Origin: Candidatus Nealsonbacteria bacterium
Lineage (GTDB): Bacteria; Patescibacteriota; Minisyncoccia; Minisyncoccales; JANBVM01
DNA: 64,000 nt
Direction of reading: 5' to 3'
Assembly: GCA_047456315.1 (NCBI GenBank)
Contig: CP179889.1
Location: 320,776 to 384,775, forward strand
A program made the translations under genes and the position numbers. The notes below the pieces were generated by a model. That model did no database searches. It saw nothing but the letters and a program-made list of their open reading frames with translations, and was not told where the DNA came from. This document shows, piece by piece, positions 57,452 through 64,000 of this stretch (the first letter of the stretch is position 1; every line of letters starts with the position of its first letter).

Positions 57452-57715
57452 ATGAGTAAAGTATCGAAAATAATAGTTGAGAGTGATTTAAAGAATTCAA
57501 TTGCAAAAGCAGTTAAAGAGATTGGCGGGTTTGAAAAATTTGTTAAGAAAGGAGAAACAGTGTTATTAAAACCTAATTTTAACACTGCTGATCCGGCTCC
57601 AGCATCAACTAGTTTAGATTTTTTAAAAACTGTTGTTGAACTCACTTATGATTGTGGAGCTAAGATTGTAATGATAGGAGACTCTTCTACCATGAGCTTA
57701 AAGAGAAGCGTTTAA
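57452..57715 (+). pseudogene. 5' fragment of a DUF362-like gene (truncated at 87 codons)
   Basis: KKGETVLLKPNFNTADPAPASTSLDFLKTVVELTYDCGAKIVMIGDSS matches my recollection of the N-terminal part of DUF362 proteins, which are roughly 300 aa or more. The reading frame ends right after it. Confidence 0.45.
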
Positions 57716-57746
57716 GGGTCTAAACTACATTCCTTTCAATATAGAA

Positions 57747-57775
57747 GTCAAAGTTTAACTTTGGCTTTTTTTGTT
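57747..57775 (+). terminator. rho-independent terminator after the DUF362 fragment
   Basis: GTCAAAGT-TTA-ACTTTGGC followed by T7. Confidence 0.45.
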
Positions 57776-57792
57776 ATGTGGTAAGATGAAAA

Positions 57793-57873
57793 TGGATACT
57801 AAATACTTGAGAATAAAAAGGGGCAATTCTGACTATTCTCAAGTAATAGTATCCAACAGAATTGCTCCTTTTT
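57793..57873 (+). promoter_or_regulatory. interleaved inverted repeats (pseudoknot-like or alternative hairpins) ahead of the sigma-like gene
   Basis: IR1: TGGATACTAAATACTTGAGAATA (57793-57815) with TATTCTCAAGTAATAGTATCCA (57834-57855). IR2: GGGCAATTCTG (57820-57830) with CAGAATTGCTCC (57857-57868), followed by T5. Confidence 0.4.
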
Positions 57874-57924
57874 GTGTCGTTGTGTAGTTTGTGCTTTTAA
57901 GAAGATTAAAATAATTCACAACAA

Positions 57925-58671
57925 ATGGCAGAGCTACAAGAATTATTATTTACAAAACATCTAAAAGATTTTGATAGTTATATCAGGTTTAGAAGCAGAA
58001 TGGCCAAATTCAAAACACCTTTGTATAACCAAGCCGAAGACGTGGCTCAAATGATACGTATTAAATTATGGCGAAGATACCCATATTTTTTAACAAAGTG
58101 GCGTGGTAGTTTCTCAATGTGGGGTAAGGTTCTGATAAGATGTTTATTTTGGGAAATAGCACATAAAGATAAAAGAGAAATTTTATATCATAATGACGGA
58201 CTGGGAAGACGCAGAGATACATTAGATAGCCAGTTTGAGAGAGCTAAATCAAAAGCAAAGGGAGGTGATAGCGAGGGTGGAGATAATTATTATGAAAACT
58301 TAGGAGATGAGAATCGTTGGTTAAAAGATTTAATCTGTGAGATAGACTTCAAACGAGCTTTAGTTTTAGCAAATATAAAAATAGAATATCTTGAAATCTT
58401 ATATCTTAGAAGTCTGGGATATAAAATTAAAGAAATTGCTGAAGCAAAGAAAACAACAAAAGGCAGGGTAAGAGGAATTTTGGAAAGGGTAAGAGCCAAG
58501 ATAACAAAGTCAGGTTTTAATTGCCGATTAGAATTAACGCCTGAGCAAATGGAAAAAAGGAATCAGAGAATTTGTCAATTATACTTTTTTAACAAAGTGC
58601 CGATAGTAAAAATCCAAGAGCAATATGGTTTTAAAAACAGGATATATCAAATTTTAAACGCTTCAAAATAA
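57925..58671 (+). CDS. sigma-70-family-like transcription regulator (region 2 + region 4 HTH)
   Basis: AEDVAQMIRIKLWRRY (region 2-like). LEILYLRSLGYKIKEIAEAKKTTKGRVRGILERVRAKI (region 4 HTH-like). Confidence 0.5.
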   Translation: MAELQELLFTKHLKDFDSYIRFRSRMAKFKTPLYNQAEDVAQMIRIKLWRRYPYFLTKWRGSFSMWGKVLIRCLFWEIAHKDKREILYHNDGLGRRRDTLDSQFERAKSKAKGGDSEGGDNYYENLGDENRWLKDLICEIDFKRALVLANIKIEYLEILYLRSLGYKIKEIAEAKKTTKGRVRGILERVRAKITKSGFNCRLELTPEQMEKRNQRICQLYFFNKVPIVKIQEQYGFKNRIYQILNASK

Positions 58672-58673
58672 TT

Positions 58674-58928
58674 ATGGAAAAAGATAAATTATTAGCAAGA
58701 GCCAAAACATCAGAAAGAAAAGTCAAAACATCAGAAAGAAAAGCTAAGACATCAGAAAGAAAAGCTAAGACACAGAAAAAAAGAATGTTAAGAATCTTTA
58801 AAGAAAGGGCTTCTAAAGTAGACCCAAAAAACTTTGGGTTTCATAGTCTAACTGGAGAAATTTATAAGCATATGGAAAAAGAAGACTTTGAAAAATCAAA
58901 AGAAATTCTAAGTATTGACAAAGATTAA
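58674..58928 (+). CDS. hypothetical basic protein containing a 3x heptapeptide repeat
   Basis: KTSERKV KTSERKA KTSERKA, encoded by a 21-nt tandem repeat. Confidence 0.45.
   Translation: MEKDKLLARAKTSERKVKTSERKAKTSERKAKTQKKRMLRIFKERASKVDPKNFGFHSLTGEIYKHMEKEDFEKSKEILSIDKD
58707..58769 (+). repeat. 21-nt tandem repeat x3 (in-frame)
   Basis: ACATCAGAAAGAAAAG(T/C)(C/T)AA(A/G) repeated three times. Confidence 0.85.
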
Positions 58929-61660: not shown

Positions 61661-61699
61661 AACGCAATCTAATGTGTAAAACCAAACAGCAATAAAACA

Positions 61700-62191
61700 A
61701 TGCCAAGAAGAAATCTTACAAATAAGCAAAAGTGTGTCCTTGATTTAGAAGCCAGAGGCATTGATAGAAATGACGCTGTTTTACAATGTTATGACGCAAA
61801 AGACAGAGCCAATGCTTATCAGATTGGTTTCAAATTAAGCAAACACGAACTATATCAAAAAGAGTTGAAGAAACAAAAGGATTTGGTTGAACTGATTAAG
61901 TTAGATGAAGGCAAGAAATTCGCAGATATATTAAGGGAACTAATAAAGCCAAGAGAAGTCGCAAATATATTAAAAGAACTGATTAACAGCAGTGATACAA
62001 GAGCCAAACTTCAGGCAGTCCAAGAATATAACAAAGTCTTATCTCACTATCCTGACGCTAAGGTTGGAATATACAGGGATTATGAAAAAGAGAGAGAGAG
62101 GATATTAACAACACCAGACCTATTAAAGCTCCCTGAAACAAAAGAACCAGTAATAGAACAAGGAAAAACCGCTAAAGAAGAAAGAAAGTAA
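61700..62191 (+). CDS. terminase small subunit candidate
   Basis: LTNKQKCVLDLEARGIDRNDAVLQCYDAKDRANAYQIGFKLSK resembles the 'LT.KQ..F...Y....N...A...AGY..K.A...G..L' N-terminal HTH of TerS proteins. Lies immediately upstream of TerL. Confidence 0.45.
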   Translation: MPRRNLTNKQKCVLDLEARGIDRNDAVLQCYDAKDRANAYQIGFKLSKHELYQKELKKQKDLVELIKLDEGKKFADILRELIKPREVANILKELINSSDTRAKLQAVQEYNKVLSHYPDAKVGIYRDYEKERERILTTPDLLKLPETKEPVIEQGKTAKEERK

Positions 62192-62223
62192 TAAAGAGAG
62201 TATTAACTAATAAGAGTATTACT

Positions 62224-62303
62224 TCTAATACTATCTAATGGTATCTAATGGTATTTACTTCTAATGGTATCTAATGAGTAGGGTTCTAATGCTTCTAATG
62301 GTA
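62224..62303 (+). repeat. iteron array: 7 copies of TCTAAT(G/A), most as (A/T)TCTAATGGTAT
   Basis: Copies start at 62224, 62234, 62244, 62260, 62270, 62285 and 62294, with spacings of 10, 10, 16, 10, 15 and 9 nt. Confidence 0.75.
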
Positions 62304-62549
62304 TTCAATCATCACGCACACTTACCAGTCCTGACAGATAAAATCCATATTATAACACACCGATATATCAAGAAATCCCCCTTAAAAGACCCACAACCTT
62401 GTCAAGTATGCTATTTTACGAACAAATAATGTCGGTTTATCTACATTGTGCGACCTTAATCAAGTTTATAGGGGGGATATGCTTTCCGAGTAAGATTCCT
62501 GTATATATATATTATTATCTACCTACCCAATTTTATTAAATATGACAAA

Positions 62550-63896
62550 ATGAAAATAATATCTGATTCATTATTACAAAAAAAGATTGGCTTTACTCCC
62601 CACAAGTTCCAACAGCAGATTTTAGACGCTTATGATTTAGGAAAAAGAGAGATTGTGGTTTCAGCAGGGGTTAGAAGCGGAAAGTCAATGATTTCTGCTT
62701 ATCTTCTTTTGAGGGAGCTGTTAAGCAACAATAAATCTTTATGTGTTATCTCCCCCTCTTATGAATTAACAGAAAGGGTTTTGGAATATATTAAAAAATG
62801 GTTGCCAAAAGTATTGTCTTCTTCTCCAAGTTTTAAAATGCGACCTTTTCCTAAAATAGTTCTTAACTGGGGAGGAGGTAAAAGTTTCTTAGAGGGCAAG
62901 TCAGCAGAGAACCCAACAGGAATCTTAGGTCAGGAATATGACCTCGTTGTAGTTGATGAGGCCTCAAGAATCCCAAGAGCTGTTTATGAAGAATATATTT
63001 TTTCAAGACTGGTTTCAAAAAAAGGAAAAGTTGTTTTAATATCAACGCCATTAAAAAAAGACTGGTTTTATGAATTATGGATAAATGCCAAATCTGATAG
63101 TGCTTCTTTCCAATTCAGGACACAGGACAACCCCCATAACCCAAACGTTTTAGAAGAAGTAGAGAGAGCCAGAAAAAAACTGCCAAGAATAATCTTTGAA
63201 AGGGATTTTATGGCCGTATTCTCAGATGAGATAACATCTATTTTCAGGAACGTCAGAGATTGTATTAGCGGAGGACTGCCAAGAAAGAAAATGTTTAACC
63301 ATTCCCATATCGGAGGACTGGATTTGGCGAAAGAAGAAGATTTTACAGCTTTCGTAATCGGAGACAAAATTTCTAATGAAATTGTTTTTGTTGATAGGTG
63401 GCAAAAAATACCTTACCCTGCCCAGAGGCAAAGAATTTTAAAGATTGCCAAAGATTATTCTCCCTGCCGAATTATAATTGATTCAAGGAATATCGGCAGT
63501 ATGATGAGTGATGAATTAAGGCGAGAGGGCGTATCAGTTCAGGACTTTACAGCAGTCGGCACAATATCTAAGGACTGGAAGAAAAGGGGTTCTAAAGAAA
63601 AGTTGGTTGAAAAGACAATGAACTTCTTTGAGGCAAAAGAAATATCAATTCCAAACCATACTGCTTTGTTAGACGAACTCTCCTCATACTCTTACAGACT
63701 TAGTGATTTCGGAAATATCAGATATGGTTCTCCTGTTGGTTTAAAAGATGATTTAGTTGATGCCTTAATGCTCTGCTGTTGGGGTTTAAGAGCCAAGAAG
63801 ATGAGTCCTGAAAGGGTTAAAAGGATTTGGCAACAAAGAGATAAATTAGCAGAAGCAAAAGCTATCTCTCGGCAAAGGTGGAAACAATATACTTAA
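62550..63896 (+). CDS. terminase large subunit
   Basis: Walker A SAGVRSGKS and Walker B DLVVVDEAS. RNase-H-like nuclease Asp residues in GGLDLAKEED, IIIDSRN and KDDLVDAL. Confidence 0.85.
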   Translation: MKIISDSLLQKKIGFTPHKFQQQILDAYDLGKREIVVSAGVRSGKSMISAYLLLRELLSNNKSLCVISPSYELTERVLEYIKKWLPKVLSSSPSFKMRPFPKIVLNWGGGKSFLEGKSAENPTGILGQEYDLVVVDEASRIPRAVYEEYIFSRLVSKKGKVVLISTPLKKDWFYELWINAKSDSASFQFRTQDNPHNPNVLEEVERARKKLPRIIFERDFMAVFSDEITSIFRNVRDCISGGLPRKKMFNHSHIGGLDLAKEEDFTAFVIGDKISNEIVFVDRWQKIPYPAQRQRILKIAKDYSPCRIIIDSRNIGSMMSDELRREGVSVQDFTAVGTISKDWKKRGSKEKLVEKTMNFFEAKEISIPNHTALLDELSSYSYRLSDFGNIRYGSPVGLKDDLVDALMLCCWGLRAKKMSPERVKRIWQQRDKLAEAKAISRQRWKQYT

Positions 63897-63900
63897 TTTT

Positions 63901-64000
63901 ATGAACATAGACCAAAGAATAAAACAATTATTAAAAGAAAGGTTAGCAGAAGAAAAGGAAGAAAAGGAAAAAAAAGAGCTGACCAATTATCAAAAACAAA
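63901..64000 (+). CDS. 5' end of next phage ORF (truncated by window end)
   Basis: ATG at 63901, 4 nt after the TerL stop: MNIDQRIKQLLKERLAEEKEEKEKKELTNYQKQ. By position it could be the portal, but this is unverified. Confidence 0.35.
   Translation, partial: MNIDQRIKQLLKERLAEEKEEKEKKELTNYQKQ

Follow-up and report, generated by a model that had tools for sequence, protein, structure and literature searches.

What kind of element interrupts a gene for a DUF362 protein in a Candidatus Nealsonbacteria genome, from the bacteria of the candidate phyla radiation (CPR)? The window analysed here is a 64,000-nt stretch of this organism's DNA, and the question concerns its final part (57452-64000), where the DUF362 gene breaks off and gives way to a block of genes transcribed from the same strand. 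The original prediction held this block to be a prophage or phage remnant. That it is a phage-related mobile element stood up to analysis; the label of prophage or remnant did not, since the relatives that we located are elements of 8-14 kb without recognised structural genes, and "prophage" is probably not the right term. On balance, we favour the reading that positions 57704-64000 are the left 6.3 kb of a satellite-like integrative element inserted at codon 84 of DUF362. The window stops at position 64000 with the right half of the element unseen and its right end further on; the satellite claim rests on comparative genomics, and the relatives carry the main argument.

Close relatives were found in context at seven independent loci. 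One of these, L030, is linked to the family through its recombinase; in the others, the large terminase subunit (TerL) is 48-62% identical to the one in the window. The TerL identities obtained for the relatives are 62, 55, 55, 53, 53, 52 and 48%. Scans of genome contigs and of viral contigs returned no relative, and the sole close locus from a metagenome scan was a short one (L006). All close relatives seen in context are compact elements of 8-14 kb that follow a common gene order. At the start stand a sigma-region-4 or sigma-like regulator (SpoVG in L001) and a replication initiator with an ATPase resembling the C-terminal domain of DnaB (a primase in L031). The middle consists of a small open reading frame (ORF), a gene for a protein resembling the small terminase subunit (TerS), a spacer and TerL. 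After 0.6-6 kb of variable content, mostly small ORFs, the order closes with an HTH_17 gene, a small resolvase (173-224 aa) and a large serine recombinase (536-550 aa), the last two of which end six of the seven elements (L001, L002, L027/L028, L029, L030 and L031). The left part of the window element is nearly gene-for-gene syntenic with L001, and the distance from junction to TerL is 4.8 kb in each. Its SpoVG-like protein, DnaB-C ATPase, small ORF, TerS and TerL all have matches in L001, while the initiator, DnaB-C ATPase and TerS have matches in L030; TerS is matched in all eight relatives compared.

Portal, capsid and tail genes had been expected downstream of TerL. Pfam and PHROG profiles recognised neither a portal nor a major capsid or tail protein in the seven close relatives, no lysis gene was recognised there either, and the smallest of them have no place to put such genes: in L027 and L033 every gene is accounted for, leaving no room for a portal together with a capsid. 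We read the family as satellite-like because genes for a portal, capsid or tail are recognisable in none of its members. Matches to tail fibres in L001 proved to be collagen-like low-complexity sequence. The same element has a cargo of four genes on its minus strand (11995-14611), opposite in direction to all its other genes; their products are predicted to be secreted or to sit in the membrane and are of collagen-like, Tyr/Ser-rich, multi-pass membrane and Cys-rich types.

The family does carry what appears to be a packaging module. The identity of TerL in the window is clear from PHROG (E = 1.4e-39), from the Pfam domains Terminase_6N and Terminase_6C, and from solved TerL structures (3e-19). 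The Walker A and B motifs and nuclease aspartates that had been noted in this protein are invariant in 17 homologues (Walker A G40/G44/K45, Walker B D136/E137, acidic residues D258, D400 and D401), and because these catalytic residues are conserved the enzyme looks functional from its sequence. In L030, the TerL (4017-5498) belongs to Terminase_3 and gives no BLAST match to the TerL of the window, suggesting that the large terminase has been exchanged within the family.

Upstream of TerL, the protein that had been proposed as TerS gives no family match when searched alone. Homologues (32-47% identity) lie directly upstream of TerL in L001, L002, L027, L029, L030, L031 and L033, and four of the seven members of the TerS-like alignment match the PHROG 51 TerS family (best E = 1.5e-5), which agrees with the proposal. 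A single-sequence structure model of low confidence (pLDDT, the predicted local distance difference test, 60) is all-helical with an N-terminal three-helix unit, and a profile search of solved structures with the TerS-like family returned nothing meaningful.

Throughout the family, TerS and TerL are separated by an unusually long spacer (230-710 bp), which in the window holds two features. One is an array that the original prediction had described as iterons. The repeats are real: TCTAATGGTA recurs exactly four times at 62234-62303 (0.08 expected), inside a looser array at 62224-62310; the iteron label, however, is better placed elsewhere. We considered this array as a replication origin and downgraded it, because it is not conserved in L001 and a better candidate for iterons lies within the initiator gene. 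While the array of the window is not conserved in L001, element-specific phased arrays with a period of 10-12 bp occupy the TerS-TerL spacer in the window, L030, L033 and L006. Recognition sites of the pac and cos kind typically contain phased arrays beside terS, and the array is a candidate TerS recognition (pac) site or regulatory site. The other feature is a conserved non-coding motif that begins with a G-run and, in an alignment of the spacers, stops 40-50 nt short of the TerL start. A strict pattern for this motif has a single match in the window (0.08 expected) and a single one in each of L001, L002, L006 and L030, in every case within the TerS-TerL spacer and on the plus strand; the 28 other loci have none. 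In L030 it lies about 330 nt further upstream; given that L030 keeps the motif while its TerL is of a different family, the motif travels with TerS and the spacer and not with TerL. It may be a cut site or a late promoter. Folded as single-stranded DNA, the TerS-TerL spacer has no special stability (z = +2.0).

Could the element instead be a complete temperate tailed phage? TerS and TerL would then head an ordinary late operon, and genes for portal, capsid, tail, lysis and integrase would be situated past position 64000. Several observations are compatible with this. A further ORF, noted before at the window edge, starts 5 nt after TerL (at 63901, not 63903), and gives low-complexity matches only, with no informative similarity. 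More distant TerL relatives (38-41% identity; L003 and L004) come from genuine phages, contigs with an SU10-type portal and capsid next to and after TerL; the TerL proteins of isolated phages are further removed, at most 27.5% identical to that of the window. The L002 element carries large proteins after TerL, one of which weakly resembles an internal virion protein, and the family recombinase was undetected for the source genome among the best 120 matches. However, the relatives with TerL identities of at least 48%, together with L030, are without recognisable structural genes; the recombinases follow TerL within 1-6 kb in six of the seven loci; and the left part of the window element shares its gene order with one such compact element. 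In addition, the phage relatives L003 and L004 have neither the TerS-like protein nor the spacer motif. We therefore consider a complete phage unlikely.

The break in DUF362 is the candidate left end of the element. The DUF362 gene had been described as truncated after 87 codons, and this is the case: the fragment matches Pfam PF04015 (E = 2.4e-6; profile positions 1-44 of 200) and is 64% identical to residues 1-83 of a 277-aa homologue (P0179). A hidden Markov model (HMM) built from 119 full-length homologues of about 275 aa aligns through positions 1-84 only, at 57452-57703 (E = 1.5e-39), and its positions 85-275 have no match in the six frames of the 64-kb window. From this comparison we infer that the break at 57703/57704 is the left junction of the element, because relatives split comM and comEC precisely. 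Such precisely split host genes make insertion the natural reading of the DUF362 truncation, and it is likely that a mobile element inserted into DUF362. The earlier suggestion that integration truncated this gene thus gains from two sides: the left edge of the element coincides with the DUF362 break, and the relatives sit in precisely split genes.

The relatives also indicate how insertion takes place. The recombinases of the family, which stand at one end of the element, carry Resolvase, Recombinase and zinc-ribbon domains. In L001, one comM fragment stops at position 88 of Pfam PF01078 and the other resumes at position 87, and L030 and L031 break comM at the same codon, so that in three genomes the break follows the residues PHH-x-S-E/D (HHTSSE, HHASSD and HHTTSE, with the break after the last residue). 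L027 interrupts comEC; comM and comEC are both competence-related. The two L001 junctions share the core TGA, and the reconstructed attP, TGTATATCCATTGAAGCTGATATACGG, is an inverted repeat around this core. Large serine recombinases use a common core of 2-3 bp and attP sites with inverted-repeat arms. Because only so short a core is left behind, long direct repeats are not expected at the ends, and a search for att direct repeats would probably fail even if integration were real. Comparison of the left end of the window element with the relatives by short-word BLASTN gave chance-level matches only; the absence of shared ends is expected if the recombinases have different targets.

The replication module supplies a candidate origin inside the element. 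The initiator matches the PHROG 2514 DnaD-like loader (4e-20) and more weakly the O-like PHROG 345 (8e-5), and is 42% identical to the initiator of L030. The role proposed for it as an initiator is thereby well founded, while the winged helix proposed for its N-terminus is only weakly matched in Pfam. Translation probably begins at the ATG at 59913. Within the gene lie three tandem copies of TGAACACGGA with a period of 12 nt, followed by a fourth copy 48 nt later and then an (AG)n tract; there are no exact copies elsewhere in the 64-kb window. At the corresponding site in the L030 initiator gene stand seven or more copies of A(A/G)CGGAACAC, some before and some after the conserved NWDK(Y/F)Q codons, and L001 has GTTGCC/GGCAAC repeats in this part of its own initiator gene. 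Iterons inside the initiator gene are thus seen in three elements (window, L030 and L001). Origin iterons within the gene of the initiator itself are the arrangement of lambda O, and on account of this likeness we place the candidate replication origin within the initiator gene, not in the TerS-TerL spacer. As in the lambda O/P module, an initiator with an N-terminal DNA-binding region has iterons in its own gene and is followed by a helicase-related partner; unlike lambda, where the partner is a P-type loader, the window encodes an ATPase with the DnaB C-terminal domain, and the iterons of the family are element-specific. The ATPase matches Pfam PF03796 (E = 1.8e-18) and PHROG 239 and 19 (about 1e-29), in agreement with its earlier description, and is 42% identical to its L001 counterpart and 38% to that of L030.

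A number of observations weigh against the satellite reading. The recombinase of the window element was not found: a profile of the family's large serine recombinases returned no protein of the 647,540-bp source contig among its best 120 matches (all E ≤ 2.5e-49). Likewise, with the 194 C-terminal residues of a DUF362 homologue as query, no fragment from the source contig was among the best 120 of 1022 matches. Both searches covered annotated proteins and the best-listed matches only. With its recombinase and the rest of DUF362 not found in these lists and its far end outside the window, the element may be truncated or rely on a different integrase. No helper phage was identified, and structural proteins too divergent for sequence profiles may be present. 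The L002 locus encodes proteins of 402 and 996 aa after TerL (11942-16140). The larger of these weakly resembles an internal virion protein (PHROG, 5.5e-11), which implies that some members carry virion-related genes; this is the sole such hint in the family and our main caution. Finally, a CPR host is established for the window element alone.

The missing pieces would also fit a decayed or truncated remnant, in which the element or an adjacent deletion has lost the remainder of DUF362 and its own right end, leaving it immobile. The base composition agrees with such a history, being unchanged from that of the host (GC 0.330 across the region and 0.339 for the rest of the window). However, each of the eleven visible ORFs is intact, and they lie close together on a single strand; TerL has lost none of its catalytic residues, and the iterons and spacer motif are intact as well; moreover, the negative searches have the limited coverage given above. 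A remnant is in our estimation improbable, somewhat more so than a complete phage.

One locus provides a glimpse of the family outside a chromosome. L033 is a contig without host genes and with no terminal overlap, and its genes follow the integrated order in circularly permuted form. It lacks the large serine recombinase and has only the small resolvase, which is 70% identical to that of L001. Judged by its gene content and order, L033 appears to be the free form of an element. Its sequence opens precisely with the conserved G-run that precedes TerL, where the DNA may have a physical end or, equally, the assembly may have broken at a poly-G tract. A free replicon of 8.3 kb with no integrase, and no helper phage identified, would also suit an integrative plasmid-like replicon that uses its terminase for concatemer processing or another transfer route, but we consider this very unlikely given the conserved ATPase and nuclease residues of TerL, the element-specific phased arrays next to terS and the fact that, to our knowledge, TerS/TerL pairs are known only as capsid-packaging motors.

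Under the satellite reading, the life cycle of the element would run as follows. A recombinase would insert it into a protein-coding gene, as seen for the relatives. Its anatomy suggests that the element could then excise and replicate from its internal origin. Its own TerS and TerL would recognise and cut a site in the TerS-TerL spacer, and may package the DNA into the procapsids of a helper phage, making the element a phage satellite. The only hints of such mobilisation are the free contig L033, with its start at the G-run, and the phages whose TerL is related at about 40% identity. Extending this to the group as a whole, we tentatively propose, with a little less than even confidence, that CPR bacteria (Patescibacteria) harbour an undescribed family of phage satellites that have their own TerS and TerL, a cos/pac-like spacer site, no capsid genes and an origin in the initiator gene, and in which a free form of 8 kb alternates with serine-recombinase insertion into comM, comEC and DUF362.

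Table 1. Features of the element in the window and loci carrying related elements. Positions of the upper rows are those of the window; positions for a related locus are those of that locus.
Feature or locus	Position or size	Strand	Basis or remark
DUF362 N-terminal fragment, 87 aa	57452..57715	+	codons 1-84 homologous; last 3 codons and stop not
Candidate left junction (attL), end of DUF362 homology	57704..57715		homology stops at 57703
Terminator-like hairpin and T-run, just inside the element	57743..57769	+	12 pairs
Long near-perfect hairpin upstream of first gene	57793..57880	+	read from the sequence; putative function
Divergent ECF-type sigma-like regulator, regions 2 and 4	57925..58671	+	TIGR02937, PHROG 1740
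Small basic protein with 7-residue tandem repeats (KTSERKA)	58674..58928	+	21-nt unit, 4.1 repeats, 90% matches
SpoVG-like protein	59199..59507	+	Pfam PF04026
Two small ORFs, 71 and 50 aa	59461..59837	+	ORF list
Replication initiator, DnaD/lambda-O-like	59850..60614	+	PHROG 2514, PHROG 345
Candidate replication origin	60203..60293		four exact TGAACACGGA copies inside initiator gene
DnaB C-terminal-domain (RecA-fold) ATPase, without DnaB N-terminal domain	60607..61461	+	Pfam PF03796
Small conserved ORF, 72 aa	61442..61660	+	L001 ORF at same position, 41% identical, E = 1.6e-6
TerS-like protein, small terminase candidate	61700..62191	+	homologues upstream of TerL
About five TCTAATGGTA units, 10-bp phasing	62224..62310		candidate TerS binding (pac) site
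Conserved non-coding motif upstream of TerL	62471..62549	+	G-run, CGAGT, TATATA, CCAC, TTTT
TerL, ATPase plus RNase-H-like nuclease	62550..63896	+	PHROG, Pfam, structures
ORF start cut by window edge, MNIDQRIKQLLKERLAEEKEEKEKKELTNYQKQ...	63901..64000	+	Lys/Glu-rich
L001	12.1 kb; comM breaks at about 5170 and about 17262		splits comM
L002	about 14 kb
L027/L028	8.2 kb		splits comEC
L029			same compact architecture; large serine recombinase present
L030	comM break at about 11617		found through recombinase; abuts comM N-terminal part
L031/L032	comM break at about 11608		found through recombinase; abuts comM N-terminal part
L033	8.3 kb, 1-8311		ENA ERZ25039515 contig_85819; no host genes

The remaining features of the window element are listed in Table 1. 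After the DUF362 fragment, the original prediction had set out a terminator and then an unbroken plus-strand block, and every gene and repeat that it listed was found where it had been placed or close by; it had also seen no integrase, and neither the ORF list nor Pfam reveals a recombinase in 57452-64000. Between the junction and the first gene lies a leader with a near-perfect hairpin of 63 nt, whose loop, GGGGCAATTCTG, is complementary to the next 12 nt, CAGAATTGCTCC, after which comes a T-run. The leader RNA (57716-57924) folds with -58.9 kcal/mol (z = -5.5), a value that none of 200 shuffled sequences equalled, and Rfam returned only sub-threshold hairpin matches to it. The arrangement suggests a pseudoknot or a choice between terminator and antiterminator, and the hairpin is a possible element of transcription control before the first gene.

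The first gene had been described as sigma-like, which is a fair label for its product, divergent but supported by profile matches. It aligns with nearly the whole of the NCBIfam profile TIGR02937 (sigma70-ECF, where ECF stands for extracytoplasmic function; positions 7-163 of 165, E = 1e-7) at 31.7 bits, below the cut-off of 42.9, and matches the PHROG 1740 sigma factor family (3.6e-5) and Pfam Sigma70_r2 (E = 0.018). Regions 2 and 4 did not score above family thresholds, and a profile search of solved structures found nothing meaningful. A single-sequence model of the protein (pLDDT 36) was unusable. Proteins with sigma region 4 occupy the same end of the element in L001, L002, L027, L031 and L033. 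The repeat protein that follows has no family match in Pfam, PHROG or NCBIfam. The SpoVG-like protein was correctly named, exceeding the Pfam cut-off for PF04026 (33 bits against 29.6; E = 6.9e-8), and has a homologue in L001 (40% identity); its gene probably starts at the ATG at 59214. No significant family match was obtained for the 71-aa and 50-aa ORFs that come after it. The small ORF predicted between the DnaB-C ATPase and TerS is present and conserved in L001.

On the upstream side, DUF362 is adjoined by host housekeeping genes encoding ribosomal protein L9, UppS (undecaprenyl-diphosphate synthase), a CtpA-type protease and an FAD oxidoreductase; the protein accessions of the source genome run in sequence from XOB40820 to XOB40832. 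Just upstream of DUF362 is an unusually long tract of non-coding DNA (56831-57451). A direct repeat of about 85 bp, present in two copies only in the window (56174-56258 and 57014-57096; about 89% identical and 840 bp apart), flanks a lone minus-strand gene (56303-56830) for a 175-aa membrane protein, and could reflect a small duplication or another insertion. Elsewhere in the window, the rRNA genes are dispersed over 9588-18788. The 16S gene lies at 9588-11126, and between it and the 23S gene are several ORFs together with tRNA-Ile and tRNA-Ala. The 23S match spans 3879 nt compared with 2925 nt for the model, indicating insertions, and a 227-aa ORF (17427-18110) lies inside it.

How does the family compare with known satellites? 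Of the four satellite families that have been described, cfPICIs alone carry terL; they are helper-dependent islands of about 10-15 kb with TerS, TerL, a replication module and an integrase, and they also encode capsid, portal, protease and head-tail connectors, such that they need only the tails of the helper (PMC10085698). The window element resembles them in having TerS together with TerL, while the cfPICI genes for capsid, portal, protease and head-tail adaptors or connectors were not recognised in its relatives. It differs further in that the family inserts into coding genes by means of a large serine recombinase and in that the host of the window element is a CPR bacterium. Classical PICIs and SaPIs are alike in size, in the succession of regulator, initiator with its own origin and TerS, and in the dependence on helper capsids that we propose here. 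SaPIs use tyrosine integrases and the TerL of the helper, and often have genes that redirect capsid size. In contrast, the present family encodes a TerL of its own, along with paired serine recombinases and an ECF-sigma-like regulator.

VEIMEs, a further group of satellite elements, range from 5 to 25 kb. They are known from marine virus particles, often have TerS and replication genes, and include "motor-like ATPases"; some of them, like the PLEs of Vibrio cholerae, integrate by a large serine recombinase (PMC9618062). No TerL has been reported for PLEs or VEIMEs (PMC9618062). The comparison of our family with these two groups is by description only. Outside satellites, serine recombinases that split genes are familiar from A118 in comK, SPbeta in spsM and the skin element in sigK, all of them phages of 40-130 kb that are, or once were, complete. 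The splitting of a coding gene at a fixed position (L001, L030 and L031) and the short core with an inverted-repeat attP (L001) recall these phages, whereas the elements described here are 8-14 kb without recognisable structural genes. The family is thus satellite-like, yet fits no defined satellite family. In the literature that we searched, phage satellites of CPR bacteria are not reported, and a large satellite survey has no mention of Patescibacteria (PMC10085698).

If the proposal is right, these elements would be the first candidate satellites in CPR bacteria, and would parasitise the phages of hosts that live as episymbionts in their turn. Having both terminase subunits and no capsid, they would stand between the SaPI type (TerS only) and cfPICIs (terminase plus full capsid), and would represent another way to capture helper procapsids. 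In practical terms, structural genes should be looked for before a TerL match from a CPR bacterium is taken to mean a prophage, and the recombinases of the family add new large serine integrases that target genes and whose natural sites are known. Insertion into comM or comEC would switch off natural competence functions; as relatives have hit these two genes repeatedly, such elements may control genes for DNA uptake and recombination in organisms that are thought to scavenge DNA.

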